Shown in pieces: positions 17,936 to 59,491 of a stretch of 64,000 nucleotides of DNA (position 1 is its first letter; each line of letters begins with the position of its first letter). Source of the DNA: Amoebophrya sp. A120 (lineage: Eukaryota > Protista > Dinoflagellata); assembly GCA_905178155.1 (NCBI GenBank), contig CAJINV010000018.1, forward strand, positions 848,609 through 912,608, in the 5' to 3' direction. The translations under genes and the position numbers were made by a program. Below the pieces are notes generated by a model that saw only the letters and a list, made by a program, of their open reading frames with translations, did not search any database and was not told where the DNA came from.

Positions 17936-20900
17936 CTACTGCCCATTTCTCATGGCTACCTCTTCCCTCCAGTGTTGTAGTATGTTGTTTGCCGTCACCG
18001 TGATATTTGGATTCGGCACCCATCCGGTCAGCTTTCGCAATTTCGAGTTGTCCGCCAACAGCGTTTTCTCGTCGGCCGAGCGCATATGAGAGTGCACAAC
18101 TCCCCCTCCCCCCCATTAATATTTACATTGCTTGACTTCCGGGTTCTGGTCCCGCCTACCCCCCGGCGACAGGTGACCTTGACAGGTGACCGCGACAGGT
18201 GACCTGGACAGGTGACCTCGACAGGTGACCTTGACAGGTGACATTGACAGGTGACATTGACAGGCGACCTTGACAGGCGACCTTGACAGGTGAGCTTGAC
18301 AGGTGACCTTGACAGGTGACCTGGACAGGTGGCCGCGACAGGCGAGGCGAGAGGGTAAAGCAAAGGCGAGACCAGCGCCTGAGCGCAAATATTTATATAT
18401 TTTACACGCCAAATGCCGACGGGGGAAAATGAAAAATAAATTAAAAGCGCCAAAAAAAAAACGCAACGCACAAAATGAAAAAAAACACAACCTGCCTCCA
18501 TAAAAAAAGAAGTCTTTGCGTTGCCATGCAAAAATCTTAAAAAGCGGCTTCCTCTGCAATGCACGGCCAGGAGACAGCTGCTTACTTTGCTCTGTGGAAT
18601 CGGAAAGGCGTTGCGCTTCAATGTTAGAGAACTTTTTTGCAGCAGCCACACAGAGATGTCTACTCTGCTTCTATTTTTGTTTTTTCTTGCAAAATGCAGG
18701 GCGCCTAATTCGCCCTTTTTCCACTAGCGCTTCGCGCACTGAGCCAATACGCGCGCGCCTGGTGTGAGGCGAGGGGCGGACGCTGTCCGCCCCGATGCCG
18801 AACACCCTTCCCCCACTAGCGTTTCGCGCACTAAGCCACTACGCGCGCGCCTGGTGTGAGGCGAGGGGCGGACGCTGTCCGCCCCGATGCCGAACACCCT
18901 TCCCCCACTAGCGCCACTAGGGACGAGCACAAGGCCCCAGCGTGGGGACCCTGTCCCCACGCTCGGGTGGGCCTTGTTTGTCATGCAAAACCCTAAACCC
19001 AAGTGCTTCCCTGTGGCACTGTTTGCATGAGAGAAGCCGGAAGCTCAAACAGCAACATACTAGGCGCATTGATTTGCCATGCGCAGGCTCCATGTGATGT
19101 GCTGGTGTTTGTATTGCTGTTCATGCAATACAAATGAGGGGGACGGGGGGTTGTGCACCCTCATACCGCAGCCTGCTCCTGTCGAACTCCAGATTTATCG
19201 GAATCTTGGCTTCTTTTGTCAGCAGTTGCAGCATGTCCTTGATCGTGTACCCAATGCCCGACCCGACGTTATACGCCTCACCGGGTTTCCCTATCCGGCA
19301 CAACTTCAGAAACACCGGGGCGGAATCCGCCACATCCGTGACGTCGCGCGAGGTGGAAAGATCCCCGTGGTAGAGCGTGTAATTTGAATTACTGCTGGAT
19401 GAAGATCTTCCTGTCGCTTCAGGGTGAATAGAAGTTGCGCTGCAGGTTTGGTTGCTGTTCGTTTTCTTAATTTTGCAGGCATGCTCCAAATCCTCGCGCT
19501 CCCGCTCTGCCTGAGACTCCAGCTCGGCAATCTGCTTCGCGAAATTTTGCAGGCTCAGCTGGTCGGTGCCGCCCTCGGCCATCTGGATAAAGATCCGGGC
19601 CACGATCGTCTTCAGATTGTAGGTTGTAGCGCGCGTATGGTGGCGAAACAGTCTTGAGAACAACTAAGCGTTTTTGCACGTTGTATCTTCTATGACGATG
19701 ATCATCAGGAACAAATTTTACATCTTAATGCTTGCACATACAAAGCCACCACGACCCCATAGAAGACAGTCAGTGTCATACAAGAGGGCAGAGAACAATA
19801 CGAGTTGTTCATCACCCCGAATTTTGAGTGCTGAAAAAAAGCAGGACGTCCTCCAAGACTTATTCACTAACATAGTACATCATGGCCAGATTTTCTTGCG
19901 CAACCTTGGAAACCTGAGATGGATTGAATCAGCAATCAACATCTTCAATATCACCAACTTAATTTGCAGTAGCACGTACCGTGCACAACAACAGTACGTC
20001 GGAAGCAATCCTGTAAAGCACCCAAGCACGTTCCTCTTGCAGAAACACAAATCGACAAAAGACAAAAATGCCCTAAATACCCCATATGGCGTGAAGGGTT
20101 TCAGGTGCGCGGTTTCTGGTATAGGCGTTCCCTCCCAATCGATCGCTGCAGCGCCGTATTCCGCGGAGGATCCCGCGACCAGAATTCGCATCTCCTTCGA
20201 CACGTCGCCGCTGTTCTGCAGCACCCGCACGGCTTCCAGCACATTCAGGGTGCCGATGATGTTCACATTCAAAGACAATATCCTGTGCAAAAGTTGTATC
20301 GTATTCGTACTCGTAGTAATCCCATTCATACATTACAAATTTCTTTCTCAAGTTAAATCCGCATTACAAATTCTATATTCTCTTTCTGAGGAAATTTGTA
20401 TTGCAGTTCATACTAGTACGATACTTTTGTAATGCATAGACAAGGAGGCGGACCCAAAGGAGACGCCGTTGATGGCCTGCGCTGCGAAGTGGAACACGTA
20501 GTCGGGCTTCAACTTTTTCGGCTATCCTGTGCAAACGTGTATCGCACTTCTACTGAACAAACTGATTGCAATCTTGCATGACAACCCTACCTTTTTACCT
20601 GAATTGGCATTACAAATTTCAATTTTCTTTCTGATAAAATTTGTAATGCAATTTGTACTAATACGATACTTTGCAATGCATATCAGCAGGTTGGTCACAA
20701 AAAAAGAATCCGTCACGTCCCCGTACTCCAGCTGTATGCGGTGGACGTAGCCCTTCAGGTTCCGCAAGTTGGAACGCCACCGAGCCAGCACAATAACATT
20801 TTTCGCAGACCCAAATTCGCAGTTGTCTACGGCGTGCTTCACCAACTGACTCCCGATCATGCCCGTGCCCCCGGTAATCAAAATTTGCTCCGTGACGCCA

Positions 20901-21082
20901 TCCCGGAGTGGAGTCCGACAGGCGGAAGTCGTGGCAGTTGTAGTACTAGGGGCCGCTGTGGCTTGCTGTGCTGGCGTGGCAAGAACGAGAACGAAGTGGA
21001 TGCAAAGAGCACGTAAAAGAGAGAACGGCCTCGTGGCTGAGGAGAAGTGAAAAAACGGAAAAAACCAGCAGGACGGAGCCAT
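17936..21082 (-). CDS. GDP-mannose 4,6-dehydratase / RMD-family extended SDR with hydrophobic N-terminal extension
   Basis: ILITGGTGMIGSQL, GDVTD, PDYVFHFAAQA, VNIIGTLNVLEA, GSSAEYG, PYG|VSK, GDLSTSRDVTDV, GEAYNVGSG, RLR|SADEKTLLADNSKLRKLTGWVP. Confidence 0.88.
18167..18342 (+). repeat. Tandem repeat, about 13-bp unit GACAGGTGACCTT
   Basis: About 13 copies directly visible. Confidence 0.95.
18721..18911 (+). repeat. 92-bp direct duplication, each copy with hairpin ggggcggac-gct-gtccgcccc
   Basis: Units start at 18721 and 18813 and are near identical. Confidence 0.95.
20279..20438. mobile_element. Introner family A
   Basis: TSD gacaa/gacaa. Confidence 0.92.
20523..20682. mobile_element. Introner family A
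   Basis: TSD tcggc/tcagc; removal gives TNLL|KKLKPDY. Confidence 0.9.
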
Positions 21083-21839
21083 CTTGATCACAGCAACTAC
21101 GTTGACCAAAAGCAAAAGCAATGAATACTACAGCGATAGACAGTCAAAATAGCGTGGCCCAGGCGGTGTGTGTTACTTATGCGGCCGAAAACGGCAAGTG
21201 TCTACTTGGACCGCGCCCCAGGAGACCGCTCTTAGAATGATGATCGCTTCGAGGGCTAAGTAGTCGGGTAGTCGACGAGAGGAGAGACTGAGTCCGCGGC
21301 GCCGGTGCAAGATCATGATCTAGCAAGTCCAAGTCGTCAGATGAATCAATCAAATTGACTGGCAAGTGCAAGTCGCACTTCTGCTTCCGTGTTGTCATTG
21401 CCTGCGTCGATGCAGCGCTGCGATAAGTACTTGTCAAAAGTTTGAAATGAGTCGAGTGGTTTATGAATGAAGATTGAGACAAGTCTCTATAGTGCCTTGC
21501 ATGTATACTATTCTTGTTTCTGTGGTAAATTGTCCAGCGCTTGTTCCCGTGTGAAAGCATTTGCTTTAGCGCTCGCAAGATTTTTGAGAAGTTGTCTGTA
21601 CTAGTTGTACGAGCTACAGATATATCGACCTTTATCGGCTACTCTTGTTCACCGGATTATTTCTCTTCGGTCTGCTTGCTTTCGCAACAGATTGTTCGGT
21701 CCGACGACTTGTTCTAAAGAGCAGAAGTAACCAATGACGGGGCAACAAACTGGTTCCAGCACTATCTTCACAGCTTGTGCAGACAAAACTACCGGTGTAG
21801 TTCGAATTCTTGGCGAAGATCGTACTATCAGAAGACGAA

Positions 21840-24800
21840 CTACAAACTGACCGCAATTGCGGTCACGTCGTCCCCCGATTGGCTCGACTGCAGCATTTTC
21901 GCCTTTTCACAGCTCGTCCGCAGGTGATCCACCCCGTTCGCAAGCAGTGCGGAAACCAAGGCAGAATTGCTATGACAGTGCACAACTCCCCCTCCCCCTC
22001 ATTTGTCATGCAAAATACCAAATCCACCCTTTGCCCTGTGGCACTGCTTGCATGACAGATTCCCGAACAAACCGAAACAGCACTACAAACAGTCGCAAAT
22101 TTGTCATGCAAAAGCTACATCCATGCGAGGACTTGTGTTGCTCCGGATGCCATCCAAATGAGGAGGAGGGGGAATTGTGCACTTTCATAATTGCTGTACT
22201 GGTTCCACAACCCCTTGGTGCCCAGAATCAAGAGCAGATCCTGGCCCGGATTGATTTTGTACGCGTTCACTTCATATCAACTGCAAAAATGTCTGGGTCT
22301 GGAAGAGTCGGGGCTTGTCATGCAGGTTTTCCATGACGCATGAGGTCTGGAATTGTGTACCTAGCATGACAAACTCTTCGAGGTCTCTAGGATGCCTATC
22401 CTGCATGAGGAATTCCCTCCCAACTTGGTCGAAAGTGGACCGGTTTTGGCACTCATGCAACACAGATCTTTGCATGATTCTGATTTAGCATTGCAAGTTC
22501 CACTCTTCCAGACCCAGACATTTTTGCAATCCATACTTCAGCCTGCGTTTTCACCACGGACAGGTCAGCGGGCAGTCCGAGGTGCCTGTCATTTTTTTTA
22601 GAGACCCTGACGCTCTGAGACCCAAACCAGCGAAACACGACGGCAGCGTGGTTTTCTTGTGTTTAGAATGACGAAAAATAAATACTCATAGCATCGTGAT
22701 TTCGATTTCTCTTGTTTTTTGGGGGATCCGCCTCTCCACGGGGATCCGCCCGCTCCCCGGGGATCCGCCTGTTACTCGGGGATCCGCCCGCTCCCCGGGG
22801 ATCCGCCTTCGCCCAGGGGATCCGCCCGTTCCCCGGGGATCCGCCTTCGCCCAGGGGATCCGCCCGTTCCCCGGGGATCCGCCTTCGTTCGCCCAGGGGA
22901 TCCGCCCCTTCCCCGGGGAACCGCCTTCGCTCAGGGGATCCGCCCGCCGGGGATCCGCCTTCGCGCAGGGGATCCGCCCGCTCCCGGGGATCCGCCTTCG
23001 CTCAGGGGATCCGCCCGCTCCCGGGGGTCCGCCCGCACCCCGGGGATCCGCCTTCGCCCAGGGGGTCCCGTCCGCCCGTTCCCCGGGGATCCGCCTTCGC
23101 CCAGGGGGTCCCGTCCGCCCGTTCCCCGGGGATCCGCCTTCGCCCAGGGGATCCGCCTGCTACTCGGGGATCCGCCCGCTCCCCGGGGATCCGCCCGCTC
23201 ACCGGGGATCCGCCTTCGCCCAGGGGATCCGCTTGTTCCTCGGGCATCCGCCCGTTCCCGGGGGATGCGCCCGTTCCCCGGGGGCTCCGCCCGCACCCCG
23301 GGGGATCCGCCTTCGCCCGGGGGGCCCACCGGTTCTCCGGGGGATCCGCCCGCACCCCGGGGATCCGCCTGTTCTGCGGGGGATCCGCCCGCGCCCCGGG
23401 GGGTCCGCCGGTTCTTCGGGGGATCCGCCCTCGCCCCGGAGGGCCGGCCCGCCTCCCGCGGATCCGCGCGCCCTCGGGGGGTCCAGCCTACGAACTTTCT
23501 TTGGGGGGATCCTCCTCAGCTCGGGGGATCCGCCCTCGCCCCGGTGCGTTCGCCCCAGCCTCCGGGGATCTCCCCTTGCCAGGAGGGATCCGATATTCGT
23601 GCTTGCCCCTCGGACTGCGCCGGCGTCGCGGGGTTTCACTCCCTCCCCGACGGACACCCGGCCAGCCCGGGGCGGGTGCGCCCTTGCGCCAGAGGCTCCC
23701 GCCTTAGGGGTCCTTGCCCTTGCCGCGTTGGCGGTGGGCACGGGCACCGGCACCGGCAAACCGGCGCACATTTCTTGTTTCGGCTTGGTTCTTCCAAGTT
23801 GTCAGCGTGTTGCTGGTTGTCAAAGCGGCGCGTTGACAACCAGCAGCAGGATCGAGATGCGACAACCACACAGAAACAGGAGGCGTCCGCACAACCACCC
23901 GAGGCCTTGAGAATCGAGAGAATGCGCGCCGGTTTGCCGCGATGCCCTGCACTCGAGTGCGTTCCAAAATCTTCCAAAATGTGCGCCGGTTTGCCGCGGT
24001 GCCCGAAATCGACGCTGTGCCGGCGGGGAAAGACCGCGAAGGACGGCGCGAATCCGGCCGGAGGATTCCGGAGAGGATTTTGGAATCCTCTCAGGAATCC
24101 TCTTCCGAAATCGAGGCAATACCGCCGGGGGAAGGGCGCGGAAGACGGCTCAACTTGGGCCAGAGGGTTCCCGAGAGGATTTCGGAATCCTCTGCGGAAT
24201 CCTCTGTGGAATCCGCGCCCGGAATCGAGGCAGTGCCGTCGGGGAAAGGGCGCGAGGGACGGGCCAACTTGGGCCAGAGGATTCCTGAGGGTGGGGATTT
24301 TGGAATCCTCTGCAGAATCCTCTGCGGAATCCTCTCGCGAAATCGAGGTAGTGCCGCCGGGGTAAGGGCGCGGAAGACGGCTCAACTTGGGCCACGGGAT
24401 TCCTGAGAGGATTTTGGAATCCACGGCGGAATCCTCTGCGGAATCCTCTGTGGAATCCTCCCCCGAAATCGAGGCACTGCCGCCGGGGAAAGGGCGCGGA
24501 AGACGGCTCAACTTGGGCCAGAGGATTCCTGAGAGGATTTTGGAATCCTCTGTGGAATCCTCTGCGGAATCCTCTGTGGAATCCTCCCCCGAAATCAAGG
24601 CACTGCCGCCGGGGAAAGGGCGCGGAAGACGGCGCAACTTGGGCCAGAGGATTCCTGAGAGGATTTTGGAATCCTCTGAGGAATCCTCTATGGAATCCTC
24701 CCGCGAAATCGAGGCACTGCCGTCGGCGAAAGGGCGCGAGAGACGGCGCAACTTGGGCCAGAGGATTCCTGAGAGGATTTTGGAATCCTCTCAGGAATCC

Positions 24801-27800
24801 TCTGCGGAATCCTCCCCCGAAATCGAGGCACTGCCGTCGGGGAAAGGGCGCGGGGGACGGCTCAACTTGGGCCAGAGGATTCCTGAGAGGATTTTGGAAT
24901 CCTCTGCGGAATCCTCTGCGGGATCCTCTGCGAAAATGTGCGCCGGTTTGCCGGGGCCGCCAGGTTGCTCGCAATCCGCAGCCGACTGTGGCGATCTGGG
25001 CGCACGAGACTGCAACGCAGACGCGGCGCGGTTGTGCAAACAAACAGCAGCGGAGTCCTTGCGCGCGCCGCGTTTTCGGTTGCATTGCAACACACTTTAG
25101 CACGAGCTAAGCCGAAGGTTTCCCGGGAAACCTTAAACGACCTTGCCCGAGCGGAATCCATTGATTTCTGGGTCTCACAGCGTCACTTTCTCTTTTTTTA
25201 AGAATCAAACTCACTTCTATTAACTTTAACTTTTATTAGAATGGTGCCAGTGCCAGTCATCCACCTCGTCACGAGCATAATTTCTGACCTGGTGATAAAA
25301 TTGAAATTCTCATTGCAAAAAACGGCTCTTGATCTTCCGCAATACCGCGTCAGCTGCTGCGGCTGCGATTCGGCTTTTGGGTTGTTTCTCAGCCTCTGTG
25401 CTTCCCCCTTGTGTGTCAATATCGTGTGGTCCTTGGAAAGCGCCACCGCACCAAAGGTACTGCCCTCGCTCTGGCTTTCCTCGCGGCTCGCAAGCACTAC
25501 ACGGGAATCCCCGATAGAACCGACCACGACCCACGATTCTTCTTCTTCGGCCGGAGTTGGACTTTTTGCTGCGCTACTCGGCGTCATCGCAGGTTGGCCT
25601 GGGGAGTGGAAAACCGCACGTGGTCATCAGCAGGAGGTACTTACTTAATAGCAGCATGTTGTGCGTGCCATACTCATCAAATGGTACTAGTGTGAAAAAA
25701 AACATCGACGTCCTATCTAACCACTTACCTTTCAATCGCAGCAGCAGTGCCAGCGCCGCAGACGCACCGTCCCCGAGTTTCAGCAACCCTTCGCCTTCTC
25801 CTCCACCGCTCGCGTTGTTTCTACCACTACTTCCTCTTGACATCGCACCCAGTTATGCAATGCAAAAGCATCGTACTGGTAGTGCAATACAAATTTCCTC
25901 AGCATTAGAAATGGAATTCGTAATGCGAGTTTACCTTGATACCTTGATACCTGAATTTGCAATTAGTACTAGTACGATGCTTTTTCATTGCATACCAGTT
26001 CCCCCTGCACGATTTCGAAGGCTTCCGCCAACACCGCCTGCGGGTTCTGGAAAATCAAAGGGTGGGAAAACATATCCTGTGCAAAAGCATTGTATTCGTA
26101 CTAGTTCTACTATGAAATGCATTACAAATTGAGTTAGCATTACAAATTGAATTTGTAATGCGGATTTGCCGTGAGATGAAAATTTGTAATGCATAAACGC
26201 GATTCGTACGAGTGCGATACTTTTGCAATGCATAAAACACCAGCTCCGCCATCCTTTGCTTGCAGTGGCGGCTGCACGTACTCCCGTTTTCGCCGAACCC
26301 GTCAAACACCGCGTAGAGCGCGATAAAGCCCTCGTTCCGCACGGTGGACAGCCAGTTGTTCGAAGATGCTGTTCCACTGGAGGAGGAGGAAGAGGATGAT
26401 GCGCTTGCTGTGGCCGCACGAGTGTTGGCACTTCCTGTTGCTGCGTGGTCTCCACCTTCCCCGATAGTTGTAGTCGTCACGATCGGACTCCTCTGCATGG
26501 CGAGCAGGAAGTCGTCCTGATTCACGGTTTTGGGGTTGCCACGGAGAGAGACCAGCCGTATGCCCAGCTTCTCCGTCCTCGTCAGAGCCGTGTCCGGGTA
26601 GCAGCTGTAACGCTTCTCCCCCGGAGAGGAGGCTTGCTCCACGCCCTGGATGATATGGCATTCTCAAACGTGACATTCTCAACCGTTACATAAATTTGTC
26701 ATGCAAGACTACCTTAAGCCGCGAGATGATCAAGCTGCTTCGCATGACAAATCTGCAAGAGGGGGCTAAACAGCATCTAAATCTGTGCCAAAGCTGTGAT
26801 GCGAAAGCAGCAACCTTGCCCCTTTGACTGTTGCCATTCTTGCATCACAAATTCATGCAACAGTTGAGAGTGTAACAGCTGAGAACGCCATAGATGACGA
26901 AAACCCAATCGGACTCCTGCTCTGGCTCGGCCGCGGGAAGGTGTATCGAATTTGAAAACGTCCCCACCCCAGAGTTGTCATGCAAGTCTGCATGCTGAAA
27001 ATGTTTGTCATGCGGAGCCCCATGAGAAGCATTTTCCATTCGTGTCTTGGAATTTGTCATGCTCCAATCAGCATGATATACTAGATCTGTGATGCTGCTC
27101 AGATAGCTCAAACAGCACTACACTACAAGTCGAAATTTGTCATGCAAAACAGCCAAACCTTGTGGATTTGTCTAGCCGAGTCCCCATCTTGACTATGGGG
27201 TGGGGACGTTTTTACTCTGGATAAGGTGGTCTACAACTTCTTCGGCACCACTTGGCGCTTGGTCGACAGTGTAATGATCTGCGGGTTGTTGCTTGTTGGC
27301 GAGACGTTCTTCTCGGGTGGTCGTGCCAGCACCGACCACTGCTTGCTCGTCCTGTAGTGCCAGTTCCGCATCCGTCGTTTTCGTCGGTGGCGACGATGGT
27401 TCGTTAGTACCTCCATACTGAAGATCTCCTTGCTGTGAAACTACACTTTGGTGTTCCGCCGGGGACGAGGCAGCGGACGAGCTGCTGATGTTCAACATTT
27501 TTCCGCTTCTCGTCTCCATCTTCAAAAGCCCGCGCAGTTTTTCGTTTTCCACGCGGAAAAATTCCACCTTTTTCACCGACTGCCTCGCCTCGAGCCGCAA
27601 CTTGTCGACCTCGAGCTCCAGGTTCTTGCACTTTTCCGTTAGACAATCGCACTGCTCGGCCTTCCTCTGCAACTCTTGGCGTAGCGTGTCCAGAATCAGG
27701 GTCTGTTCGCCCCCCGTCGGGGCGACGAGTGTAGTACCAGTTGCGCCGGAAGTAGTTGTACTACCGCCGCGGCCGTTCGGGTGAAAGGACGTAGAGGACG

Positions 27801-42200: not shown

Positions 42201-42926
42201 GTCCTGTTTTGACCAAGTCGGGAGAAAGTTTCTCATGCAGGATAGGCATGACAGGGATCGCGCAGAATCTGTCATGCTAGGTCCTGCATTCCAAACCCCA
42301 TGGGTCATGGAAAAGCTGCATGACAAAAAATCGCGCATTCTTCCAGACTCAGACATACTTGCAATGCATATGATGACTTCCGGCACCATTTTGGTCAGGG
42401 AGATCCCGCACACCAAGCTGGAGGAGGCCACGAAGGGATTTTTGTCCACGATCGCGGTTTTGAGGTAGCGGTCCGCGATCTGGTTCGCGATCTGCACGTC
42501 CAGAATCTTGGACAACACCCGGATCGCGTTCGCGCGGTTGCAATCCGTCTTACTGTTCACATCCTTAATCAGGGATGAAGTGACGATGAACGCCTCCGTC
42601 TCCGCGGGCTCCAGATTCTTTATCACCAGGTACGTCAAACGCCGCAGTTTTGGGCTCGAGCTCTGGAACAGCTTGGTGACCCCGAAAAACAGGTCGGTCA
42701 TGTTGTCGCCGGAAAACCGCTGTCCCTGGAACAGCATGTAAAGAATCTTCGTGATTAGCCGGCAACATTTGTCGGTGTCGATCGGGGTCGCGTGGAAGGC
42801 CCGGGCTTCGAGCAAGAGGGTGGATTTGTCGCCTTGCCAGGGATTTACAAAGTCGCGGTTGTCTTCGTATTTCAAGTTGTCCCGCAAGGCAGACTTCAAC
42901 TTGTCAGAGATGGAATTCGCCAACAT
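36289..42926 (-). CDS. COPG: Coatomer subunit gamma (gamma-COP)
   Basis: DKSTLLLEARAF, LFFGVTKLFQS, VTSSLIKD, RANAIRVL, KRWVNEIQE, VQYHALALLYEIKKNDRL, LLKTGNESNVERLVKQITSFMSDI, LCEFIEDCEY, YNRLILENA, DDEVRDR, IKHIF. Confidence 0.95.
36464..36613. mobile_element. Introner family F
   Basis: TSD agggg/agggg. Confidence 0.92.
37080..37338. mobile_element. Introner family B
   Basis: TSD tgcgc/tgcac. Confidence 0.9.
37556..37790. mobile_element. Introner family C
   Basis: TSD atgtg/atgtg. Confidence 0.92.
38319..38580. mobile_element. Introner family B
   Basis: TSD tcgtc/tcgtc. Confidence 0.92.
38871..39265. mobile_element. Introner family B carrying a nested 116-bp insert
   Basis: TSD tacgg/tacgg; otherwise close to 38319-38580. 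Confidence 0.92.
38969..39084 (-). other. Spliced-leader-capped retro-insert with 17-bp TSD
   Basis: Starts GTAGCCATTTTGGCTCAAG (39084-39066); flanked by caggacgtagcatgaca at 38952-38968 and 39085-39101. Confidence 0.85.
39571..39850. mobile_element. Old, decayed introner
   Basis: TAT..GTA ends and weak TIR; removing it plus 5 nt restores ENALV|RAAAADAL. Confidence 0.65.
40134..40412. mobile_element. Introner family D
   Basis: TSD atgat/atgat. Confidence 0.92.
40845..41003. mobile_element. Introner family A
   Basis: TSD tggtc/tggtc. Confidence 0.92.
42106..42370. mobile_element. Introner family B, in opposite orientation to the 6162 and 38319 copies
   Basis: TSD tgatg/tgatg; removal gives PEVI|KRWVNE. 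Confidence 0.92.
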
Positions 42927-44738: not shown

Positions 44739-47700
44739 TTACTTATCCTTCGGCAGCTCCAAGATCTTCCCGATCCCCACCGTTTTTCCCTCGTCCCGTA
44801 AGGTGAAGCGACCCATCTTCTCGCAGCCCTTAAAGCTGTCCAGAGCGGCTTTCTGGTCCAAGGTGATAATGCAGGTCAGAATGTCGTTCACCTTTGCGCG
44901 CTATGCACTGTAAACAAATCGATCTGGTGCTCATGGCTCAGGAAGAACAATGCAAACTTCCACTTCGTTGACAACTACATGACAACTCAGAATGACACAA
45001 AAATCTGTTTTGCATCAGCAGCAAAAGATGACGTGGTTGCCTACAGTACACAACTTTGTCTAGTAGGAAACAACATGCGCGGAAGGAGAAAAAAGCACGT
45101 CCAACTATGTAAGGAATGCTACTTCTTCTGCTTGCCTTTATTGGCACAGCACGATCTTCATCGGAGGTTTTGCGTAGAATTTGCCTATGATTTTTCAAAA
45201 TGTGCATGACATCAAGTGAAATCTGGCAACCCTTCATCTTCCAGAACCTCCAGTCGATATTGTACAACTATTTGCCGTCGATACGAACTTCGGGTTCGGG
45301 GTTTGCTTTTTCTTGTTCGACACAATCTGCACGGTTTCCACCAGTTTCGTGATTTCGCAATCTTCAATCGCAGTGTGGAAGTGGATCACGCAGCGGTACC
45401 TGTAAATTTGAAAATGACCCGCTTGAGTCCCTTTCGCGTTGCAAGTGCAACCACTAATAAGGAAAAACATCAACTTTGTACGACGCGGCAAAATCTTGTA
45501 CGACATCTAACCACTTCTGCTGATGCATAATTACAGCAATTTCAAATGATGTAAAAATTGCACTTCTACTTAGTGGACATGGAAAATGACTATCGTAACT
45601 ACCCCGCGGTCAAGATGGGTCGCTCTTCCACCAACTCGATGATTTTGAACTGTGCCTTGAACTTTATCACGGCCCTGGCCGGTTCCTTGACGGGACAGAG
45701 CACGAACCCTTTTCGCATGTCCTCCTCGGACACCCCGCCGGTAATCTTCACCGTGACAGACTCCCCCACTACCGCGTGGCTCACTTCCTCCTCCCCAATG
45801 AAGACGGACACCGCCGTGCAGGTTTTCCCCGTGGGTTGGATCAGGCACTTCATGCCCGGCAGAACTTTCCCCTGTTCAATTTTGCCGATCGCCATCAAGG
45901 ATCCCATGTCCCGGTACCCATCCAACATGGGCATGCGCAGCGGGTCGGTGGTTTTTGCGTGAGCGGCGATGTTGAGCTCGTCGATGGTGTCGAAAAAGGT
46001 TTTCCCCGTGTACCAAGCCGGAGTCCCCTTGCGTTCCTTCAGGTTGTCGCCATTCAGTCCGGAGATAGGAAGGTAAATCACCTATATGGATTGTTCCGGA
46101 CGTCGTGAGAGAGTGGAAACAATATACAACATTTGGAAGGTGGAAAAATCGCAGGGGCACAAAGCCGTGACACGACGAGGACAATGCAAAAGATAAAGAA
46201 GTTGCACATCTGAAGTAGTTATGCCACTGCAATTCTATATTCCACAGCAGAATGAATGAAAGCCACTACAGTAGCTCTACTTGCGCGATCGTGTCTACTT
46301 AATACGTACAAGCACAAAGTGGCACAACATTCCTGTGCCTTTCTTACGTTATTCATGCAGATGCGACGCCGACGTCGCTGATGAAATACTTACGTGCATA
46401 ATTATCTCGATCGACTTTTACTCAAATACAGCAGGCAAGCCTAGAATTTACACGTCTACCTCAACCCCAGCACTCAATTCTAGTTTTAAAATTTTATAAT
46501 GAAAAGTATCGATAGTACCTGGTCCTCCTTGAAGCCGCAGGTGCTCTTTAAGAAAGGTTTCATCTTGCCGCAAATCTCGTCGTAGCGTTCCTGCTCCCAG
46601 CCCACACTGTGGTCGTCCATTTTATTTACCGCGATAATCAATTTATCCACCCCCAGGGTCTTTGCGAGCACCGCGTGTTCGCTGGTCTGCCCGCCCTTCT
46701 CAAACCCCGTCTCGAATTCACCTGGTCGTGGAGCAATAATTGCATTCATCTATCGTCCTGCTTCCTCTTACATTCCTTCTACACAAACAAGACAAAAACT
46801 CGAACGTCAACTTAAAGAAACTTTCGTAACTCTCGTGAAGAAGTAAGTAAGTACTTACTATACCTTTTCTTGCGCTGATGATCAAAACCCCGATGTCAGC
46901 CTGACTGGCGCCCGAAATCATGTTTGGTACATAAGACTTGTGACCTGGTGCGTCCAGGATGGTGAAACGTTTGTTCGTGGTGCAGAACTGCGCGCGCCCC
47001 ACTTCCACCGTCTTCCCCTTGGCTTTCTCCTCCTCACTGGTATCCATAATGTAGGCCAGAAACCAACTGTCGCGGTTTTTGTCCTTCGCCTCACGCTGGT
47101 ACCTGTGGTCAGGATGGGTGGAAAACTGTACTTTGCAAGTTTTTTGAAAAACAGAAATGCAAATTGTCATGCTACATATAGGAATAGGTGGAAAGCAAGG
47201 AAAGTATTACACCTGTCACGATGCATATGAATCAAATCGCAACCTAGTACTTTTCAATCGTTCGTTCGTCCACGTAGCCCGTCAAGTAGAGGATGTTCCC
47301 GCACGTTGTGCTCTTTCCCGCGTCGACGTGGCCGATAAAGACCATGTTCATGTGCGGTCGGGGATCCGGGTCCTTGACGGCCCCCGCCGGCTTGGCGACT
47401 ACTGCCTCCTCCGTTTCTGCTGAGGCTGCGTCGTCCGACTCCGCGGGCGAACTGAGGACTTCCTTCTTCGGTGCCGCAGGGCTGGGACTGCCCGTCTTCA
47501 GCGGCTTGGTTTGTGGTTCTGCGGCTGTTGATGCAGCTGCTGGAGGCGACGTGGCAGCGGGTGCTGGTGCTGGGGCCTCCTTTTCTACTTCTACCGGCGC
47601 CGCGCTCTTATTTTCCTTGGGAGAATTCGAAGGAGAAGTTGTGCTCTCCGCCTTGGCCGCGGGGCTTGGGCTCTGTTTAGTGGTCTGCGCTTCCTTGGCT

Positions 47701-49367: not shown

Positions 49368-49677
49368 GGTCGTGTGTTGCGCGTGTAGTCACGTTCAAGT
49401 TTGCTCCGTGGTGAACTTTCGGGTCGTGCAGGGAAACATGAGTCGCGTTGTCGAGGTATGTTATGAATACATGTGTTGTATACGGATAGGTGCCACAGAT
49501 GAAACTAAGAGACACTGACAAACAACGGTGCGATGTATTTTTTAAAATTCAGATTTCTTGGTAGTGATTTGGACCAACTTTTTATCGGCCAAGAAAATCG
49601 AAAAAAAATCCGGTGGCGCGGCGAAACTGTAGAGGCCAGAGCCAACCAACGTAAGGGGGGCGATTCCCGATTCCCGA

Positions 49678-50330
49678 ATTTTGCATTGCTCAAAATCGAT
49701 TTTGCACTCCCGCAGACGCGGACTGCACAAAATCGATTTTGCATTGCACGAAACCGAATCCCGCAAAATCGATTTTGCATTGCACAAAATTGATTTTGTA
49801 TTGCACAGCATCGATTTTGCGTTGCACAAAACCGAATCCCGATTTTGCAGTGCACAAAATCGATTTTGCATTGCACAAAACCGAAAGCAGCAAAATCGAT
49901 CTTGCAGATCTTGCATTGCACAGAAACGATTTTGCATTGCACAAGATCGATTTTGCATTGCACAAAACCGAATCCCGATTTTGCATTGCACAAAATGGAT
50001 GTTGCATTCCCGCAGACGCGGATTGCACAAAATCGATTTTGCATTGCACAAAACCGAAACCCGCAAAATCGATTTTGCATTGCACAAAATCGATCTTGCA
50101 TTGCACAAAATCGATTTTGCACTGCACAAAATCGATTTTGCATTGCACAAAACCGAATCCCGATTCTGCATTGCACAAAACCGAATCCCGCAAAATCGAT
50201 TTTGCATTGCACAAAATCGATTTTGCATGGCACACAACGCAGATTGCACAAAATCGAATCCGCAGACGCGGATTGCACAAAACCCCTCCTCCAGACGCGC
50301 AATCCCGCAGATTGCACAAAATCGATTTTC
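49678..50330 (+). repeat. Tandem array, about 21-bp unit AAAATCGATTTTGCATTGCAC
   Basis: Many copies directly visible; the AAAATCGATTTT core is a palindrome. Confidence 0.95.
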
Positions 50331-50907
50331 CATTCCCCCAGAACGCAGCGCCGACCACAAGGCCGGTTTTGAGCTGACCACAGGTGGTTCGATGTTGTGG
50401 GTCGCGCAAGGGCTGTTGAAGGCCACACAATCGCCCGACCACACAAAATCGATTTCGCAGCTTCCCAGGTCCGACAGAATCGAGCGGCCGCGTGGCTCAA
50501 TATCGAGGCGGTGCGCCACGCAATCCGCCGGGCCGACGGACTAGGGGGGAGAGCTTCCAGCTATGCGCTTTAGCGGATCTCCCACAAAATCGATTTTGTG
50601 CGTCCGCCCTTTCTTCGCGGATGCAGCCTCCCACGCCAAGGCCTTACCAACCCCCGCCCCAGCCCGCGCCCTATGAGGTACGGGCAACGGGCCCTACCGG
50701 CCACAAAATCGATTCTGCAGCCCCTCAACCCTATGGACAACGTCGGCACCTTGCCGGACATTAGATCTTCCGGAGAGATCTGGACTTCCGGAAAGATCTC
50801 GGGAGATCGCTGCGGTCCGGATTTTCCGACTTCCGGAAAATAGAGCTTCCGAGAAAATAGCAGAAAATCGATCTTGTGCCTCCATTACTATTCAATAGTA
50901 GCGGGAT

Positions 50908-51328
50908 CGGACTAAACCTGGCCCATACCATCGGCGGAGGCAGTTGCTTACTATCCAGTTGGTAATCTGCTGCCAAAAATCCAAAAAAAATCCGAAGGCA
51001 GTCGCGCTCGAGGTGTCGCACGCAAAAATCTGAGCTGTTTTGTGTTGCGTCCCGAGCAAAATAATAATTACTATTGAATAGTAACCAACTGCCTCCGCCG
51101 ATGGTATGGACCAGGTTTGGTCCGTCTCCGTTACTATTGAATAGTAACTCGCGCGCACTTTTGGCGCATTTTTGGCGCACACTCGGGCGCACTTTTGGCA
51201 CACAGAAAATGGACTTTGAAGCGCCTCCGAATCTCTTGAAAGTGCAAGCGTTCGGATTTTTGGCAGCAGATTACCAACTGGATAGTAAGCAACTGCCTCC
51301 GCCGATGGTATGGGCCAGGTTTGGTCCG
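50908..51328. repeat. 75-bp inverted repeat (50908-50982 vs 51254-51328)
   Basis: Arms are reverse complements with about 1 mismatch; partial third copy near 51086-51125. Confidence 0.9.
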
Positions 51329-53871
51329 TTCTCCTTAGCAATGAAGCAGAAAATCGATTTTCCGACTCGATTTTCGATTTCGAGGACTTGCTGATGTCCC
51401 GATCTCGATTTTCGATTTCGGAAAATTCCGGACTTTTCGCAAACTCCGGACTTTTTGAAATTTCCGGAATTTCCGGAACCCGGAAAGTCGATTTTTCGGC
51501 AGTCCCGGAAAGTCCAAGCAACGCGTGGACTTCCGGAACACTTGCTCCTCTGGATTTTCAGGAAGTTGGAAAATCGATTTTGACAAACAGCCAGACAGCC
51601 ACCTGCCTTAGCCACATAGAAGGCCCGCGCCACCTCTTTTGCCCGCACCACCACTGCCGCGGACATCGCACAAGGAGCGGGCCAACAAAATTGATTTTGC
51701 GCGCCTCGGGTGATTGAACCCGCAGACGATTCTGCGAGCCTGAAGCAACTAAAGTCCCCGGCTCTGGGCCCCATCAAGCGCCCAGCGGCTGTCGAGGACT
51801 GAGCCGCGGCACCCACCGAGGGCTGTCTGTTCACAAAATCGATTTTGCGACCCCCGCGCCAGCCGAGAGCCCGTTCCTGGCGCCTCTACGGAGCTCAGAA
51901 CACGCAGACGGGGCCCATGCCGCTCCCGCGGCTTTTCAGAACTTGGGCCCGGATGTAAGAAAGTCACAAGCTCGGGCGTTTTTCATTGGTTTCTACGCTG
52001 GGCCAACGCGATGAATGTGCGGAACTTCATCTGGGCGCAAGTTCTGGAGTTCGCGATCATCCCTAAGCCTGTAGCGTGCGAGCGAAACATCGATCCAAGG
52101 CGGGCAGAGGCCCGTCCTCTGCGACTTCGCCCCACGCAATCAATTTTGCAGCTTTTGCCGGAATTTCCGGCTTTTGTGTTGGTAAAATCGATTTTGCGAA
52201 CACGCGCGGATTGTGTGGCCCCGCCCGAGGATAGGGCATCTTCGAAAAGCGTGCCCGAAGGGTGCGCACAAAATCGAATCTGTCCGCGGGTACTCACAAA
52301 ATCGATTTTGTGAGCACCACCCGCCGGGCGGAACATGACAACCCGGCGCCCCCAACCCGGCTGCGGGAATCTTTCTGGCAGCCCGGACGCTCCAGGGTGG
52401 GGCCTAACGCCTCAGGACACCGGCAAAAACTGCCGCGAGACCGAGTTGGCGCATTCTCGAGCTTCGAGAACGCGGGCAACCGACTTCGCTTCGCGCTACT
52501 TTGCTTCGCTTGTGGACGTTAGCAGCCGCGGCACAAAGTCGATTTTTTGCGGCGTGCCTGGATTTTTTGCGGATTTTTTTCCGATTTTCTTAACATTTTT
52601 GAAGTCGGTCCAAATCAGTACTAAGATTTCTGAAGTGAAACGAAACATGAGGACATTATGTGGCACAGTTCACTACAACTAGAACTACTAGTATGGTCAG
52701 TCCATAAAATACAGATGAGTTATGCTCTTTCTTCGATCTTCAGTAGCATTTTTTCAGCAGGAAGCTTCGAGTCGCTTCATCATAGTGGAGCTTTCATTTT
52801 CGGCTTATCTCCGTTCGGACAAGATCCTTCGGTTGCTTTTTCTTGCTACGTAGATCCTTTAAAGGAGAAAGCTCATCAAAAACAAAAACGGATCTTTACT
52901 TTCGTATAAAAAACAGATCATCGCAGTGCGTTGTAATATTAATATTCAGGCTGTTACAAAGGCCCTGCGAGGCTAGCCGCAACAACTCAGAAAGACACTT
53001 CAGATCAACTCGTATGTGTCGTTCCACAGAGTATTTGAATTCACCACGTGTTTTTGAAATAGTCAACGTGAAGCACGATTTTGATCTCTTCGTCTTGCAA
53101 CAAAATTGCAACGTATCTTTTGGATGCTGAGTCTCTACGAACACAACATGCACAGGGGCAGACTCGCACTCCCTCATGACCACGAGCACTGGGTACGACA
53201 CCTCTACAGTGTCCCAAGGAAGTTTCTTTCTTGCCGGATGGTCCTGCGAAACACTAAGACGCCCGAAACGCAACAAACTTTGAACCATTATGATTTCCTC
53301 TTCATTTTGGCAACTTATAATGCCCGTTTCATCTCTATGGCCCTCACGTGTGTCACGATCTGACTCGACGTCACCCGATCCAAAGACCACCTCAACTGCT
53401 GTGTGAATTTACTTTGAAACTGTGTCAACCTCGCCTTGTATCGAATAAAAATAAACTGTGAAAATCTTTGCCTTGACAAATCACTATACCTATACCTGCT
53501 GCTGTATCGAATAAAAATAAACTGTAAAAACGCTGAACCTCCGTACTAATCCTAAAAAACGCAAGATCGCTGAGGTAGTGGTCTTCGAGGGTGAACGGAT
53601 CCTGTGAAGAGTACGCGGTGCAAAGAAATACAGCAACATCGCAAACCACCAAAAGCTGTCATTCAAAAAACATTTGTAGATTCCTGTACTAGGGATTGCT
53701 CTAGCTTGTCAGCGTTTCTTGCTCTTAGTGCTGTGGTCTAAGAAAGTACGTACAGTAAATATATTTGTCTTCCTCCCACCAAACTGAAAATTCCTTTACC
53801 GATATAATTCTACATACTGAACTAATTCTGCTGTCCTTGTTGCTGCACCACCATCAACGCGGACCGCCCTC

Positions 53872-56800
53872 CTACACCTTCATGCCCTGCAGGAACGACT
53901 TTGCCTCGCCGAGGGCTTCGATTTCACCAGTCATGTGCTCCTGTCGGATGTCGATATCAACTGCAAAAATGTCTGGGTGTGGGTCTGGAAGATTGCCAGG
54001 TTTGTAATGCATATCTTGCATGGCCCATGATGCCTGTGATGCATGATTTAGCATCACAGATTTTCGAAGCGCTTCCTGATGCCTATTCCGCATGAGAGAC
54101 GCCCTCTTGGCATATTTAAGAATCGGACTCCTCTTGCTGGTCATGCAACACATATTTTTTTGGAATGCGAAGACAGCATGACAAACCTTCCATTCTCCCC
54201 GACCCAGACATGTCTGCATTTGATAGTCGAAGTTATCGAACAAAAACTTGCAGTCGTCCTTCCACTGCTTCAGCTGCAAGTCCTCATTGTACTTCTCGTC
54301 CATTGTGAACTTCTTTTTTTCCGTTTTCGCCTGCAGGTCCTCTTCCGCTGCGGCCTTCTCCTCGCGAAGCTGCGACAAAAACGCTTTCTTATCCTTAATG
54401 GATTCTTATGGATGGGAAAAAAACTGCGGTCTGATAGTTCATCTTTCTTTTGTGTGCGTCCTGTGGTCGGTGTTTTTCTTAAAGTTAAAATCGACCGGCT
54501 TCCAAGCGATATGGATATTTTCATTTGCCTTGCCGAAGAGACCACAGATGCAAAATCCCTCGTGGTTCTCGCGCAGAGATGAGTATACTAAGCGTAAGCA
54601 TCACTGCCGTGTTTTCAACATAAAAAACTAAAACACTGCGACACAGTTATGTCGCCCTGCTCAAGATTGTAAGTACGCACGAAATCTTATGAGCACATAC
54701 AAATAGTCCACACCCGGCTGCAAATGACATATTTAAAAACCAGCATCAGACACACATGTTTTTTTCCCCCTCGATAGCTCATTTGCATCCTTTACGGCCT
54801 TTTCGTATTCCGCCTGACTGGCCTTCTCGTTCTGGATGCGAACCTCCGCGGACTTCTCCGTGTCTGCGATGATGGTGGCAATCATGGTCATGACCTTGTT
54901 GCCCCCCGCGGACTTGGCGTAGGTCTTGAATTTGGGCTGGTCGGCCCTGGCCTGCAGCAACAGCTTCGCACCGTACACCTTTGCGAGCACTTCCTCCGCC
55001 TTCTTCAACACCTTGATGGAAGCTTTCTCGTCCGCGAGCGCAGGCTATGAGAGTGCACAACTCCCCTTCCAACACCAACTCATACATTTGTATAGCACGA
55101 GCTGCAACTACCGCAGCAATGCTATGCCACGAATGTAGGTTTTGCATGACAAGTCCGGACATGGGTTGCAGTGCTATTTCTTGGGCGTCCAAAACTTGTC
55201 ATGCGCAGAGTGCTTTCAAAAGCACGAGGTGGGTTCGGTATTTCGCATGACAAATGAGGGGGAGAGGAAGTTGCGTACTCTCATATGGCCTGGTAGTCCG
55301 CGTTCTCCTGGGCCCGGATCTCGGAGAGCTCCTTCAGTTCCGTCTATCCCACGAAAAAAGTGTTACAGTTACACATTTGTAGTCAATTCAGCAACACAAA
55401 TTTCTCGTCTGCATGTAGTGCAGAAATCGTAGGGGAAAACACCTATGAAACGGGGCTCCTATGCATATCCGGCACGACAAAGGTTGCCTGTCTTGCTTGT
55501 TTCGCAACACAATGTGTAACTGTAACACTTTTTTTTGCAATACCTTCTCCTCCTTCTCCAGCGCTTCGGTGGTCTCGTCCATGGCCTGCTCAAGCCCCTG
55601 GATTTTGATCTCGAGCCGCTCCTTCGCGGCGTTCAGGTTGTCGATATGCATTGCAAATATGTCAGGATCTGGAAACTTGTGACGCAAGGCACGGAATAGT
55701 GAGCACATCGTAATGCGCTACCAAGCATGACAAGTTTTTCCGAAGTACTACGTTGCGTATCCCGCATGAGAAACTTCGTTTTTGCATAGCAGGCAAGAGA
55801 AACCCTTTGCGATGATTGGCAACACAAAGTCCAGAGTCATGCCAGACCAGCATGACAAACACAGATCTCGCATTTTCCCCGACCCAGACGTCTTTGAATT
55901 TGATAGTCGATATCCGTCTGCAATTTTGTGACCAGCGTGGTCCGGTCGTTGATCTCGGTGGTGCAGGTATCTTTTTGTTATCCACAGGAGAAAGTTTCCA
56001 GTGCGCAACGCTGTACAAATGCAGTTTCTGCATGAAGTGTTTCTCTCTGAACCATATACCTACCCGCCATTCGGCATGACAAGTGGCCTGCCTTCATGTA
56101 TGTTGTCGAAATTTGAAGTGCATTTTGTACGTCGTGTACGGGAAGAAAGTAAATTCGCATCGCATATTTGCTTCACGTCGTCTGCCATTTGCTTCTTAAT
56201 ATCCGCTACCAGGGCGTCGATGGCGGAGATGACCGGTGCAAACGCGTCGGCCTTCACCTTTTGCGCCAGGATCAGCAGTGCCTTGTTGGCGTATCGCTGT
56301 CCCTATCAAATGCAAAAATGTCTGGGTCTGGAAAAATCCAAGATTTGTCATGCATATTTATCATGACCCATGATGCCGGTAATGCATGCCCTAGCATCAC
56401 AGGTTTTTTGAGGGATTCTTGATGCCCATTCCGCATGACAAATGCCCTCTCCGCGTAGCAAAAATTAGATTCCTTTTGCTGCTCATGCAACACAAATTTT
56501 TTAGACATCGAAACGCAGCATCACGAGGTGCATTCTTCCAGACCCACACACTTTTACATTTGATAGCCCGGCCCGGCGGAGGATCTTCTGTGCCTCCGAG
56601 ATGCGCTGTTCCCGCTGTGGGATTCTCAATTGTTACATTCTCAACTGTTACAGGAATTTGTCATGCAGAAGCACCATCATCATCCTCACGATCAAGCTGC
56701 TCCGCATGACAAATTTGGCAAGGCCTAAACCGCGCCTAAATCTGTGCGGAATTTGTATGCTACAGGTGCAACCTTCCCCCTTGTACTTTTCCAATTCTTG

Positions 56801-59491
56801 CATCACAAGCTCATGTAACAGTTGAGAATGTAACAGTTGAGAACGCCATACCCGCTCCTCCAGGGCCGAGGACGACGCGGCTCCCTGCAGCTGCAGAAAC
56901 CCGAGGGCAATGCACTGCAAAAGCATCCTACTAGTAGTATAAACGCATTACAAATTTCACCAGCATGAGACATAAAATTTGTAATGCTGATTTACCCCAA
57001 GAAAAAGATTTGTAACGCATGACTGCAATACGAGTACGATACTTTTGCACAGGATAAGGGCGCGCCCGAACAGCGCGTGAGCCTCGTCCGAGTTCAGGAA
57101 TTCCAGCGCCTTGCCCACCGCGGCGATTTCCTCCGCGCGGGCCTTGGTTCGCTCCTCAAACTCCGCGTCCGCAAGGGTGCACGTCTCCGTTGCCTCGGCC
57201 AGCGTGGTGGTGTCGGCCTCGATATAACAATGCACAACTCCCCCTCCCCCTCATTTGTATATTAGCATGAACGTCAATACACGCATCAGCAAGAATGCCG
57301 GTTTTGCATGACAAATTTTCACTGGAGCAGAGCGCTATTTGGGCTGCCAGAACTTGTCATGCAAACAGTGCCAAGAGGCAAACGATGGATTGGGTATTTT
57401 GCACGACAAATGAGGGGGAGGACGTCGAGTTGTGCACTGTCATACTCGAGGCCCGCCTCGCACAATGCCTTCTTCGCCGTGTTCTCTGCGAGCATTTTCA
57501 TGGCGTCGGCCAACTTTTCCTTCTCCTTCTTCAACGTGGCTTGGTCCTGTCATATATATGTGGATTTCGGGTTTGATGCACATTTTTTGGTCTAGAATCA
57601 AAATCGATAGCCGCAGTGTAACTACAAGCATTGTAAATTAGCTGCAGTTCTTCAGGGTGAAACAAGTAGCTGAAACTGCAGTAAAAATGCAGATGAAGTA
57701 AAAACACATCTATTTACCTTTGCGATCATCTCTTCTTTCATCTTCTTCTGGGCCGCAAAATTCTCGAGCGCTGCTGCTTCAGTTGAGTATGGCGGGGAAA
57801 GATGAAAACCGTGTGGTGTTGTCCTGACTATGGTCGCGTCGCAGCTGGATACGCCTACAACAGAAATTTTTGACGATGAAAATGTCAGCATTTGCAGTTT
57901 GCATCATCATGCCTGGATGGGGTGCTATCAGCGGACACGTCATCGTCGATGCAAAAACAATCCCCAACCTACGTCGAGGACAACTACACCGAGTTTACTA
58001 TTCTCTCCCCTTCCATATTTCCCGCGACTCTTTCAAATCTGCGGTGAAGGTGTCGAGCATGTTCTCGAGAATTCCAAAAATTTCACCGCTCTGGGAGGAA
58101 TACGCCGAGAAAGTTGGCTGCTGCAGAAAGTCCTGTACCGACTCGTTCTGCGACTCGGACAGCTCGTTTGAATTATGCAATGCAAAAATATAAATATCGG
58201 GCAAGCGTAGTCCACATTGATTTTGCTTCACACGCTTGTGGTGATCTACCAAAATCACATGGGAATATCAAAAGCGGTTTTCATGAAAACTTGTCATGCT
58301 GTGACGCAATGCTTGGTACTACGAGGCACGATAGTTTTGCTCAACATCTTCATACTTATGCCTCAGCTGCAGCAACCTGACGGATTTGGACAGGGTTTTT
58401 TTCACTGTCATCAAGACACCGGTGGCGGAGTCTTCCTGCAGAAAGCTGTTGTGCTTTTTCAAAACAGTGAGTGCGGACTTCAGTGCGCCAATGGCCTGGA
58501 TCATCTCCTTCTCTTCGGCCGAAAAGGACGCGAGTTCCTTCGCCCGCATCTCCGTGGCCTCCTCCAGCGCTGCGGAATTTCCCTCGATGGCTTTCTCTAG
58601 GGCTTTGATTTCCGCGCCGGCTTCGGCCTGTCGCCCCGTAGCGGACTCGATGTTGGCGGTGGACTGTGAGATGCAGGCTTTGTTCGCCTCGATGCTGGCT
58701 TTGGTGTCTTATGGCGTTCTCAACTGTAGTTACATTTTCAACTGCTACATGGATTTGTGATGCAAGAATGGGAAAAGTGAAAGGGTGGAGATTGCACCTG
58801 TAGCATTACAAATTCCGCACAGATTTAGGCGCTGTTGAGCCCTAGGCAAGTTTGTCATGCGAAGCAGCTTGATCGCTTGGATGATGATGGTGCTTTTGCG
58901 TGACAAATTCCTGTAACAGTTGAGAATGTAACGTTTGAGAACCCCATATGTCTTTCTTCGTGGTTTTGCACCAGCAGTTCATCTTCTTGTACGTGGCTTG
59001 GTCTTCTTCGCCCTCCGTAGGTGTATGCATTGCAAAATAAGTATCGCACTCGTAGGAATTATTGCAATGACGCATGAAAAAGTTTTCTTTTTCGAGTAAA
59101 ATCAGCATGACAAACTCTTGTCGTGCTGAGCTAATTTGTAATGCAATAACTGCTAGTACGATACTTTTGCGATTCATAAACGAGCTGCGTCTGCATGTCC
59201 TTCAACAACTTGATCACTTTCGACACGGGCTATGCATTGCAAAAGTATCATCGCAGTGGTAGTTGTAAATGCCATATCGCATGACAAGTCTCCTTCCTTC
59301 AACTCAATCGGCATTACAACATCTTCTAAAGAAAATATTTTTTGACAAAATTTGTGATGCGACAGCTGCTACTTCTATACAACTTTCGCAATGCGTACAG
59401 GCCTTTCCTTCTTCAAAAACGTAGCAGCGGTGGTGGACAAAAAGGATGCGAGGAGAACGTGGGCCGTTCTCCTCATCCTGCAGTTCCGCAT
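53872..59491 (-). CDS. Secreted long coiled-coil protein of a dinoflagellate-type family, carrying 14 introners
   Basis: Signal-like RTAHVLLASFLSTTAAT; ERPVSKVIKLLKDMQTQLVTEGEEDQATYKKMNCWC; SQSGEIFGILENMLDTFTADL; FEERTKARAEEIAAVGKALEFL; CKFLFDNFDIRQEHM..EIEALGEAKSFLQGM*. Confidence 0.85.
53955..54225. mobile_element. Introner family B
   Basis: TSD gtcga/gtcga. Confidence 0.92.
54407..54776. mobile_element. Old introner, distinct family
   Basis: TIR TATSGAKGGGAAAAAAAC..GTCTGAT; TSD decayed; removal gives DANE|SIKDK. Confidence 0.7.
55046..55285. mobile_element. Introner family E
   Basis: TIR TATGAGAGTRCRCAACT; TSD decayed; frame restored on removal. Confidence 0.85.
55345..55542. mobile_element. 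Introner family G
   Basis: TIR AAAAAAGTGTTACAGTTACACATT; TSD ccgtc/ccttc. Confidence 0.85.
55645..55905. mobile_element. Introner family B
   Basis: TSD gtcga/gtcga. Confidence 0.9.
55979..56166. mobile_element. Introner, F-like and diverged
   Basis: TSD tttgt/tttgc; removal gives VKQ|KDTCTTE. Confidence 0.75.
56304..56565. mobile_element. Introner family B
   Basis: Family B TIRs; flanks gtccc/gcccg. Confidence 0.88.
56616..56850. mobile_element. Introner family C (left end TGT)
   Basis: TSD cccgc/cccgc. Confidence 0.9.
56909..57056. mobile_element. Introner family A (left end AAT)
   Basis: TSD agggc/agggc. Confidence 0.9.
57223..57444. mobile_element. Introner family E
   Basis: TSD ctcga/ctcga. 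Confidence 0.9.
58174..58354. mobile_element. Decayed introner
   Basis: TAT..ATA ends; removing it plus 5 nt gives RHK|NELSES. Confidence 0.6.
58710..58948. mobile_element. Introner family C
   Basis: TSD tgtct/tgtct. Confidence 0.92.
59024..59178. mobile_element. Introner family A
   Basis: Family A TIRs; TSD decayed; removal gives QLV|TEGEED. Confidence 0.85.
59231..59397. mobile_element. Introner family A, diverged
   Basis: TAT..GTA ends; TSD cgggc/caggc. Confidence 0.8.

Follow-up and report, generated by a model that had tools for sequence, protein, structure and literature searches.

Transposon-derived introns in a 64,000-nucleotide stretch of Amoebophrya sp. A120 DNA (the window) leave the message at a fixed register and are likely removed by a divergent spliceosome, a combined reading to which we give a probability of roughly 0.55. 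The register itself we hold with considerable confidence: the upstream cut falls one base before a 5′ TAT and the downstream cut four bases after a 3′ ATA. This N·TAT…ATA·NNNN code sets borders that the study describing these introns left unknown or variable; its legends call the splice sites variable and the border unknown (Fig. 3) and give distances of 1-5 nt (Fig. S23) (Farhat 2021, PMC7789003). A search of literature text, with figures and most subscription journals outside its scope, found no stated fixed Amoebophrya register. Relative to the consulted text of PMC7789003, the fixed 1+4 code, the dispensability of the direct repeat and long stem, and splicing in both orientations are new, and the 1+4 rule may be implicit in published figures (Farhat Fig. 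3, S19, S21, and S23).

Proteins encoded in the window are identical to Amoebophrya sp. A120 models, and the exon adjoining the element at 20523 matches a protein named Amoebophrya sp. A120 at 100% identity over the query and one from A25 at 69%. The minus-strand genes are broken up by elements with a 5′ TAT and a 3′ ATA, and we catalogued 58 of these with 5-nt direct repeats, a minimum number from a list that is biased to recognisable ends and under-counts old copies. A looser scan for end pairs returned mostly noise, from which the elements at 32, 13090, 15325, and 48438 were kept and the other candidates dropped. Strand was resolved for 54 of the 58, with 17356, 21971, 22275, and 48438 read as minus by assumption. 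Judged by their anatomy, these elements are the known introners of A120 as far as the published description reaches (Farhat 2021, PMC7789003). That account reports about 30,000 repeated introns of about 240 nt, with inverted repeats that start with TAT and are followed by an A run and 3-5 nt direct repeats over the borders; it reports no cognate transposase in A120, and a later study assigned the introners to several transposon classes (Gozashti 2025; sources consulted also include PMC12130899 and PMC12787238).

Four properties support this identification. First, the position matrix of the inverted repeat begins with TAT and reaches an A run after ~7 variable bases, and positions 1, 2, and 3 pair in 56, 57, and 56 of 58 elements. 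Second, direct repeats lie over the borders, perfect in 37/58 elements and matching at 4/5 positions in another 11/58 (21/58 are imperfect in all), with decay to chance level in the oldest; random pairs match perfectly in 0.16% of cases, a comparison to be read with the fact that many elements were first found by requiring the repeat. Third, the elements form families in a self-BLAST of the window, and thousands of contigs from run X5 pile on them, with no family match listed in that self-BLAST for 39571, 44902, 54407, or 58174. Finally, the elements are removed from mRNA with ends other than GT-AG, as seen in 16 displayed joints and in 11 more cases from piece ends or lengths.

Several further features of the window were recorded. 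T is scarce at the central position of the downstream repeat copy (5/58 elements), and TCGA-type palindromes recur among the repeats; together these hint at a target preference. One introner, 18085-19165, spans 1081 nt, contains internal 13-nt and 92-nt tandem repeats, and has ends related to those of 21971, 55046, and 57223; another, 38871-39265, is 395 nt long, with perfect 20-bp inverted ends and, inside, a duplicated or nested segment. Tandem arrays occupy 22722-24935 and 49667-50334: GC-rich ones of 19 nt and 114/126 nt, and a 21-nt array whose unit resembles an introner end (TGCATTGCACAAAA). The stretch 50885-51334 has nested perfect inverted repeats but was rejected as an introner, its flanking 5-mers being inverted and not direct. 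Rfam gave no match at gathering score anywhere in the window. Between genes, 59609-59700 on the plus strand contains C-box-like and D-box-like motifs plus a 17-nt duplication; C and D boxes are hallmarks of snoRNAs. A 35-nt core of this region is matched by several contigs and by the otherwise non-matching raw-read runs X7 and X8, which within the RNA-compared stretches matched only 59624-59659. These matches suggest a conserved small RNA, and Rfam found no meaningful match at 59450-59900.

Evidence for the register came from contigs of runs X1, X2, and X4, which derive from one sample and were taken to be RNA by guess (X1 carries a poly(T) loose end at 44198), compared with the window over 51600-64000 and 38600-45560. 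Such contigs show the majority form and drop minor registers, and our counts come from the joints displayed and from piece ends or lengths; X5 was added at 38600-45560, where 12/15 displayed joints were chimeric links between paralogous elements. We express the register as k, meaning how many bases of the upstream repeat copy stay in the message, so that the 4+1 register means k=4. Three joints, all on minus-strand introns, have zero sliding letters and give k=4 exactly. The intron at 54403-54777 (element 54407-54776, C+TAT…ATA+AGAA, repeats TGAGC/AGAAT) is removed by a joint from 54402 to 54778; the intron at 55042-55286 (A+TAT…ATA+GCCT, repeats GGCCA/GCCTG) by a joint from 55041 to 55287; and the intron at 58170-58355 (G+TAT…ATA+ATTC, repeats ATAAG/ATTCA), whose inner inverted repeat has decayed and whose terminal stem is not predicted, by a joint from 58169 to 58356. 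The preliminary description had inferred that the intron is N+TAT…ATA+NNNN and that taking the fifth base from the downstream copy at 54407 gives serine; both inferences proved correct, with cDNA of the unslidable 54407 joint reading Ser.

The remaining joints slide by one or more letters and bound k from one or both sides. The minus-strand introns at 56300-56566 (element 56304-56565, repeats CGGGC/GGGAC, joint 56298 to 56566) and 59020-59179 (element 59024-59178, repeats TCGTT/CACCT, joint 59018 to 59179) each have one sliding letter and allow k=4-5. For the intron at 59227-59398 (minus; element 59231-59397, which starts TAC, repeats GCCTG/GCCCG), the 46-letter side of the neighbouring joint requires k of at least 4, and for that at 63608-63894 (minus; element 63612-63893, repeats TCGAT/TCGAC), an RNA contig piece that ends at 63607 requires k of at most 4. 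Broader ranges came from minus-strand introns at 55341-55543 (element 55345-55542, repeats GAAGG/GACGG, joint 55339 to 55543, k=3-5), 57784-58018 (element 57788-58017, repeats GGAAA/CTCAA, joint 57782 to 58018, k=3-5), and 55975-56167 (element 55979-56166, repeats GCAAA/ACAAA, joint 55973 to 56167, k=1-5). Altogether, 14/14 RNA-bridged elements with register information fit k=4; nine of these junctions are displayed joints, and those of 39571, 59231, 62107, 63176, and 63612 were derived from piece ends or from the lengths of joint sides. Seven junctions (54407, 55046, 58174, 56304, 59024, 39571, and 59231) require k≥4, four (54407, 55046, 58174, and 63612) require k≤4, and none of the 14 conflicts. 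With k uniform and independent, the chance that all 14 fit k=4 is 2.2e-6 and that all fit any common k is 1.3e-5. At the 5% setting, no other-letter rows appeared in the RNA contigs at informative junctions. The check proposed earlier, reading cDNA junctions at mismatched repeats, is in these contigs consistent with a single register.

The preliminary description had argued for the register from five repeat pairs and from the residues that the upstream copy supplies. All five pairs are present, on minus-strand genes. Besides 54407 and 59024, they flank the elements at 20523-20682 (GCTGA/GCCGA, in a GDP-mannose dehydratase-like gene, with intron borders at 20519-20683 inferred from k=4), 39571-39850 (GGTGC/CCTCC, intron 39567-39851, with a 5′ end reading TAC and not TAT), and 44902-45283 (GTTCG/GCGCG, intron 44898-45284). 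The repeats match at chance level in 59024 (1/5), 54407 (2/5), and 39571 (2/5), where we infer their status as target-site duplications from their spacing and, in the case of 59024, also from the family it belongs to. Retention of the upstream copy was borne out, but the residues by themselves give only k≥2 in the COPG-like gene and k≥3 in the dehydratase-like and eRF3-like genes, and RNA was therefore needed to reach k=4. The names COPG and eRF3 were that description's own; Pfam gives an Adaptin_N domain for the gene with 39571 and an EF-Tu/eEF1A-family domain for that with 44902. At 39571, an RNA contig picks up again at 39851, and the 121 nt that remain for two small exons set k=4-5 by piece-end arithmetic. 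At 44902, a joint from 44896 to 45284 with two sliding letters gives k=3-5 and is found in X1, X2, and X4 and is absent from X5. The 20523 register rests on protein models: A120 model P0001, which is a product of the same genome project and cannot be separated from that project's RNA data, has Leu and so requires k≥3, and relatives P0002 and P0003 have Phe or Leu at that column. Protein evidence also bounds two elements near the end of the window, giving k≤4 for 62330-62490 (intron 62326-62491, minus, repeats GACTC/GACTT), where P0004 and relative P0005 have Ser and k=5 would give Pro, and k≥3 for 62601.

Two observations concern the host genes. A single coiled-coil-like gene at 53235-59400 (minus) has one GT-AG intron along with at least 15 introners, and one 2.7-kb contig shows every one of them removed. 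At 10370-21127, dehydratase-like and kinesin-like genes adjoin and form one fused model in relative P0002, an arrangement that indicates conserved gene order.

Decay of the direct repeats gives little independent purchase on the register. Mismatches are spread evenly over the five repeat positions (7, 9, 7, 8, and 7 of 58), as expected when every position is represented once in the exon and once in the intron, and per-position mismatch rates among the 58 elements, previously suggested as a test, are uninformative unless polarised. When the discarded base was swapped into the message, 18/38 changes were silent, against 22-25% expected from one gene's codons (p 0.0005-0.0025), and the other 20/38 changed a residue or introduced a stop. 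A good share of the repeat mismatches thus probably arose at silent exonic sites. Of the asymmetric decay claimed previously, asymmetric constraint stands, but given the flat mismatch rates and silent swaps, the intronic copy is not the only one that decays.

What is retained is the pair of terminal triplets. At 14 displayed introner joints of the gene at 53-59 kb, found without requiring TAT, bases of TAT/ATA had changed in 2/84 cases and repeat positions were mismatched in 20/70. Across 16 imperfect RNA-bridged elements, there were 2/96 changes in TAT/ATA and 32 repeat mismatches (p 1.4e-5, by a cautious count). TAT and ATA are therefore kept while the repeat and inner stem decay. The proposal that cuts are measured from the stem was too strong. 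The terminal three pairs had a predicted pairing below 0.2 in 11/27 RNA-bridged elements, two of which are among the three exact junctions. In 6/27, 54407 and 58174 among them, no pairing was predicted for either the end or positions 8-15. These figures come from a prediction that allows only exact register at 37 °C with no protein and so underestimates pairing. At the intron spanning 56905-57057 (minus), which has a perfect repeat and a mutated 3′ end (ATT for ATA), the first pair is U·U, yet the joint skips 153 nt, exactly the element plus 5; had the count started at the first Watson-Crick pair, 2 more bases would have been left behind. Because a long stable stem is not needed, the cuts track the TAT/ATA motifs rather than the stem.

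Several features of these ends are consistent with a divergent spliceosome. The 1+4 register places TAT(G/C) at +2 to +5, and T+2 and A+3, the U and purine expected at these positions of a U2-type donor, occur in 58/58 elements, partly by ascertainment. GT-AG introns of the same genes begin GTA in 5/6 cases, matching the T+2/A+3 of the introners. In Farhat Table S4, T stands at +2 in each of the nine most frequent non-canonical borders of either strain (NT-NN in A120 and TT-NN in A25), although these borders may be biased by how aligners place slidable joints (PMC7789003). The same source reports 83/89 spliceosome proteins and U2, U4, U5, and U6 in A120, with U1 not detected. Fritillaria, as described in the sources consulted, offers a precedent. 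We propose that N-T-A-T-(G/C) acts as a degenerate donor in which U+2 and A+3 are kept and G+1 is released. In a young introner, the inverted repeat would bring the two ends together; in an old one, short TAT/ATA pairing held by protein might do so. Distance from ATA, rather than an AG, would fix the acceptor. Because 1+4 equals the 5-base duplication, removal of the element and one repeat copy would restore the message after a fresh insertion.

Other features count against a spliceosome. At k=4, the bases at +1 (C16, G15, A14, and T13 among 58 elements) and at −4 to −1 are free, AG ends occur in 2/58, and GT-AG in 0/58; the U2 pattern GT(GC)/AG is absent, with GY-AG in 0/58 at k=4 and at most 2 at any register. 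A is present at −7 in 58/58 elements, but its surrounding context is mixed and does not support a branch-point consensus around it, and no common branch consensus was found near the 3′ end of the 58 elements. The Euglena analogue, reported in the consulted sources to yield circles without lariats, is thought to use other machinery.

The same register might instead be the work of an endonuclease and ligase outside the spliceosome, or of Euglena-like machinery, that would recognise the symmetric TAT/ATA end pair and make staggered 1/4 cuts. We regard this as possible but doubtful. Splicing of related elements in either orientation, as with 56616 and 58710 (87% alike, on opposite strands), also fits a symmetric non-spliceosomal signal, as do the free boundary bases, the undetected U1 snRNA (PMC7789003), and the published Euglena introns, in which a complementary triplet is set off by spacers fixed at 3 and 5 nt and which are excised as circles. 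An excess of G·U over A·C pairs in the stem, read on the sense strand (60 to 38, p 0.033), also points this way, but family members do not contribute independent pairs, and a mutation bias linked to transcription would produce the same excess. Against such an enzyme, T+2/A+3 is the canonical donor in both strains, which a new activity would not need, and the stem is lost in old copies. Were this reading right, A120 would have a second splicing system, orientation-blind and distinct from the standard spliceosome, that needs no GT, AG, or branch consensus, reads only the transposon TAT/ATA ends, and places its cuts at distances of 1 and 4 bases beyond them. With offsets adding up to the length of the duplication, any insertion would then do no harm, and Euglena (3+5) would have come to this rule independently; we advance this tentatively.

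It is improbable that 4+1 is merely a majority register, with some introns or molecules using 5+0 or 3+2 behind perfect repeats. Contigs can hide minor forms, exact junctions number only three, Farhat describes sites as variable and 1-5 nt from the repeat (PMC7789003), and Euglena tolerates +1 on the acceptor side (PMC12501133). One candidate counter-example is the introner of the kinesin-like gene at 13086-13292 (minus, repeats TGAAG/CGAAC), for which k=4 gives Gln and k=5 gives Glu, the residue present in relative P0002 by sequence comparison; an exonic change is a possible explanation, and a homologue search with the kinesin exon found no match. Weighing more heavily, k=4 fits every informative junction, other-letter rows are absent there at the 5% setting, and the spread in Farhat would be expected of an aligner faced with slidable joints.

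At the sites compared, element removal is RNA processing. Run X5, which is DNA-like, is unbroken over 39236-40162 and 42298-45560, has no joint at 38864 or 44896, and contains contigs that span 39571 (in record 10) and 44902 intact; X1 includes a low-depth unspliced contig; and reading frames open only after element removal and then match relatives without the insert. Excision from DNA in the manner of ciliate internal eliminated sequences, with RNA copying edited DNA, would suit the transposon-like ends and duplications, but the intact elements in X5 and the window and the unspliced X1 contig make it very improbable. Hairpins with direct repeats are the classic setting for reverse-transcriptase template switching or microhomology joining, and most of the repeats are perfect (37/58), but the zero shared letters at 54407, 55046, and 58174 refute such artefacts at those joints, some bridged elements have no predicted hairpin, and frames open only upon removal, so this explanation can be set aside because, as argued previously, the direct repeat is dispensable. 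A tRNA-type bulge-helix-bulge, whose geometry needs complementary flanks, is rejected since introner flanks are direct.

The closest working analogue of the 1+4 code, in the sources consulted, is that of Euglena nonconventional introns, where complementary triplets lie at fixed, unequal distances from the two cuts and the code 5′-N3CDG…CH′GN5-6|R was tested by knock-in (Nomura et al. 2025, PMC12501133). Excised introns of euglenids are reported to be circular, and a MITE origin has been proposed (PMC12501133, PMC11282704). In both systems, direct repeats make most introns slidable, and the Euglena code was found from non-slidable ones. The two nevertheless differ: the window elements read N1-TAT…ATA-N4 and do not follow the Euglena code, with spacers of 1 and 4 instead of 3 and 5-6 and motifs TAT/ATA instead of CAG/CTG; a purine is preferred in the next exon in Euglena but not in A120 (27/58 purines); and the lineages are unrelated. 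Fritillaria borealis likewise has transposon-derived introns with inverted repeats and duplications that are removed despite ends other than GT-AG (PMC11282704, PMC13326754), but it prefers AG-AC and AG-AT borders, keeps U1, and has divergent U2AF paralogues (Henriet 2019, as reviewed in PMC11282704; Soo et al. 2026, PMC13326754), whereas the border bases of A120 introners are free and U1 is undetected. From the A120 code one can predict where any lariat or circle should begin and end, and the code singles out U+2/A+3 as what is still read in the donor. The sum 1+4=5 explains seamless insertion, in which a new copy is likely removed without damage to the gene, and A120 and Euglena together suggest a general route of intron invasion, by splice offsets that add up to the duplication length.
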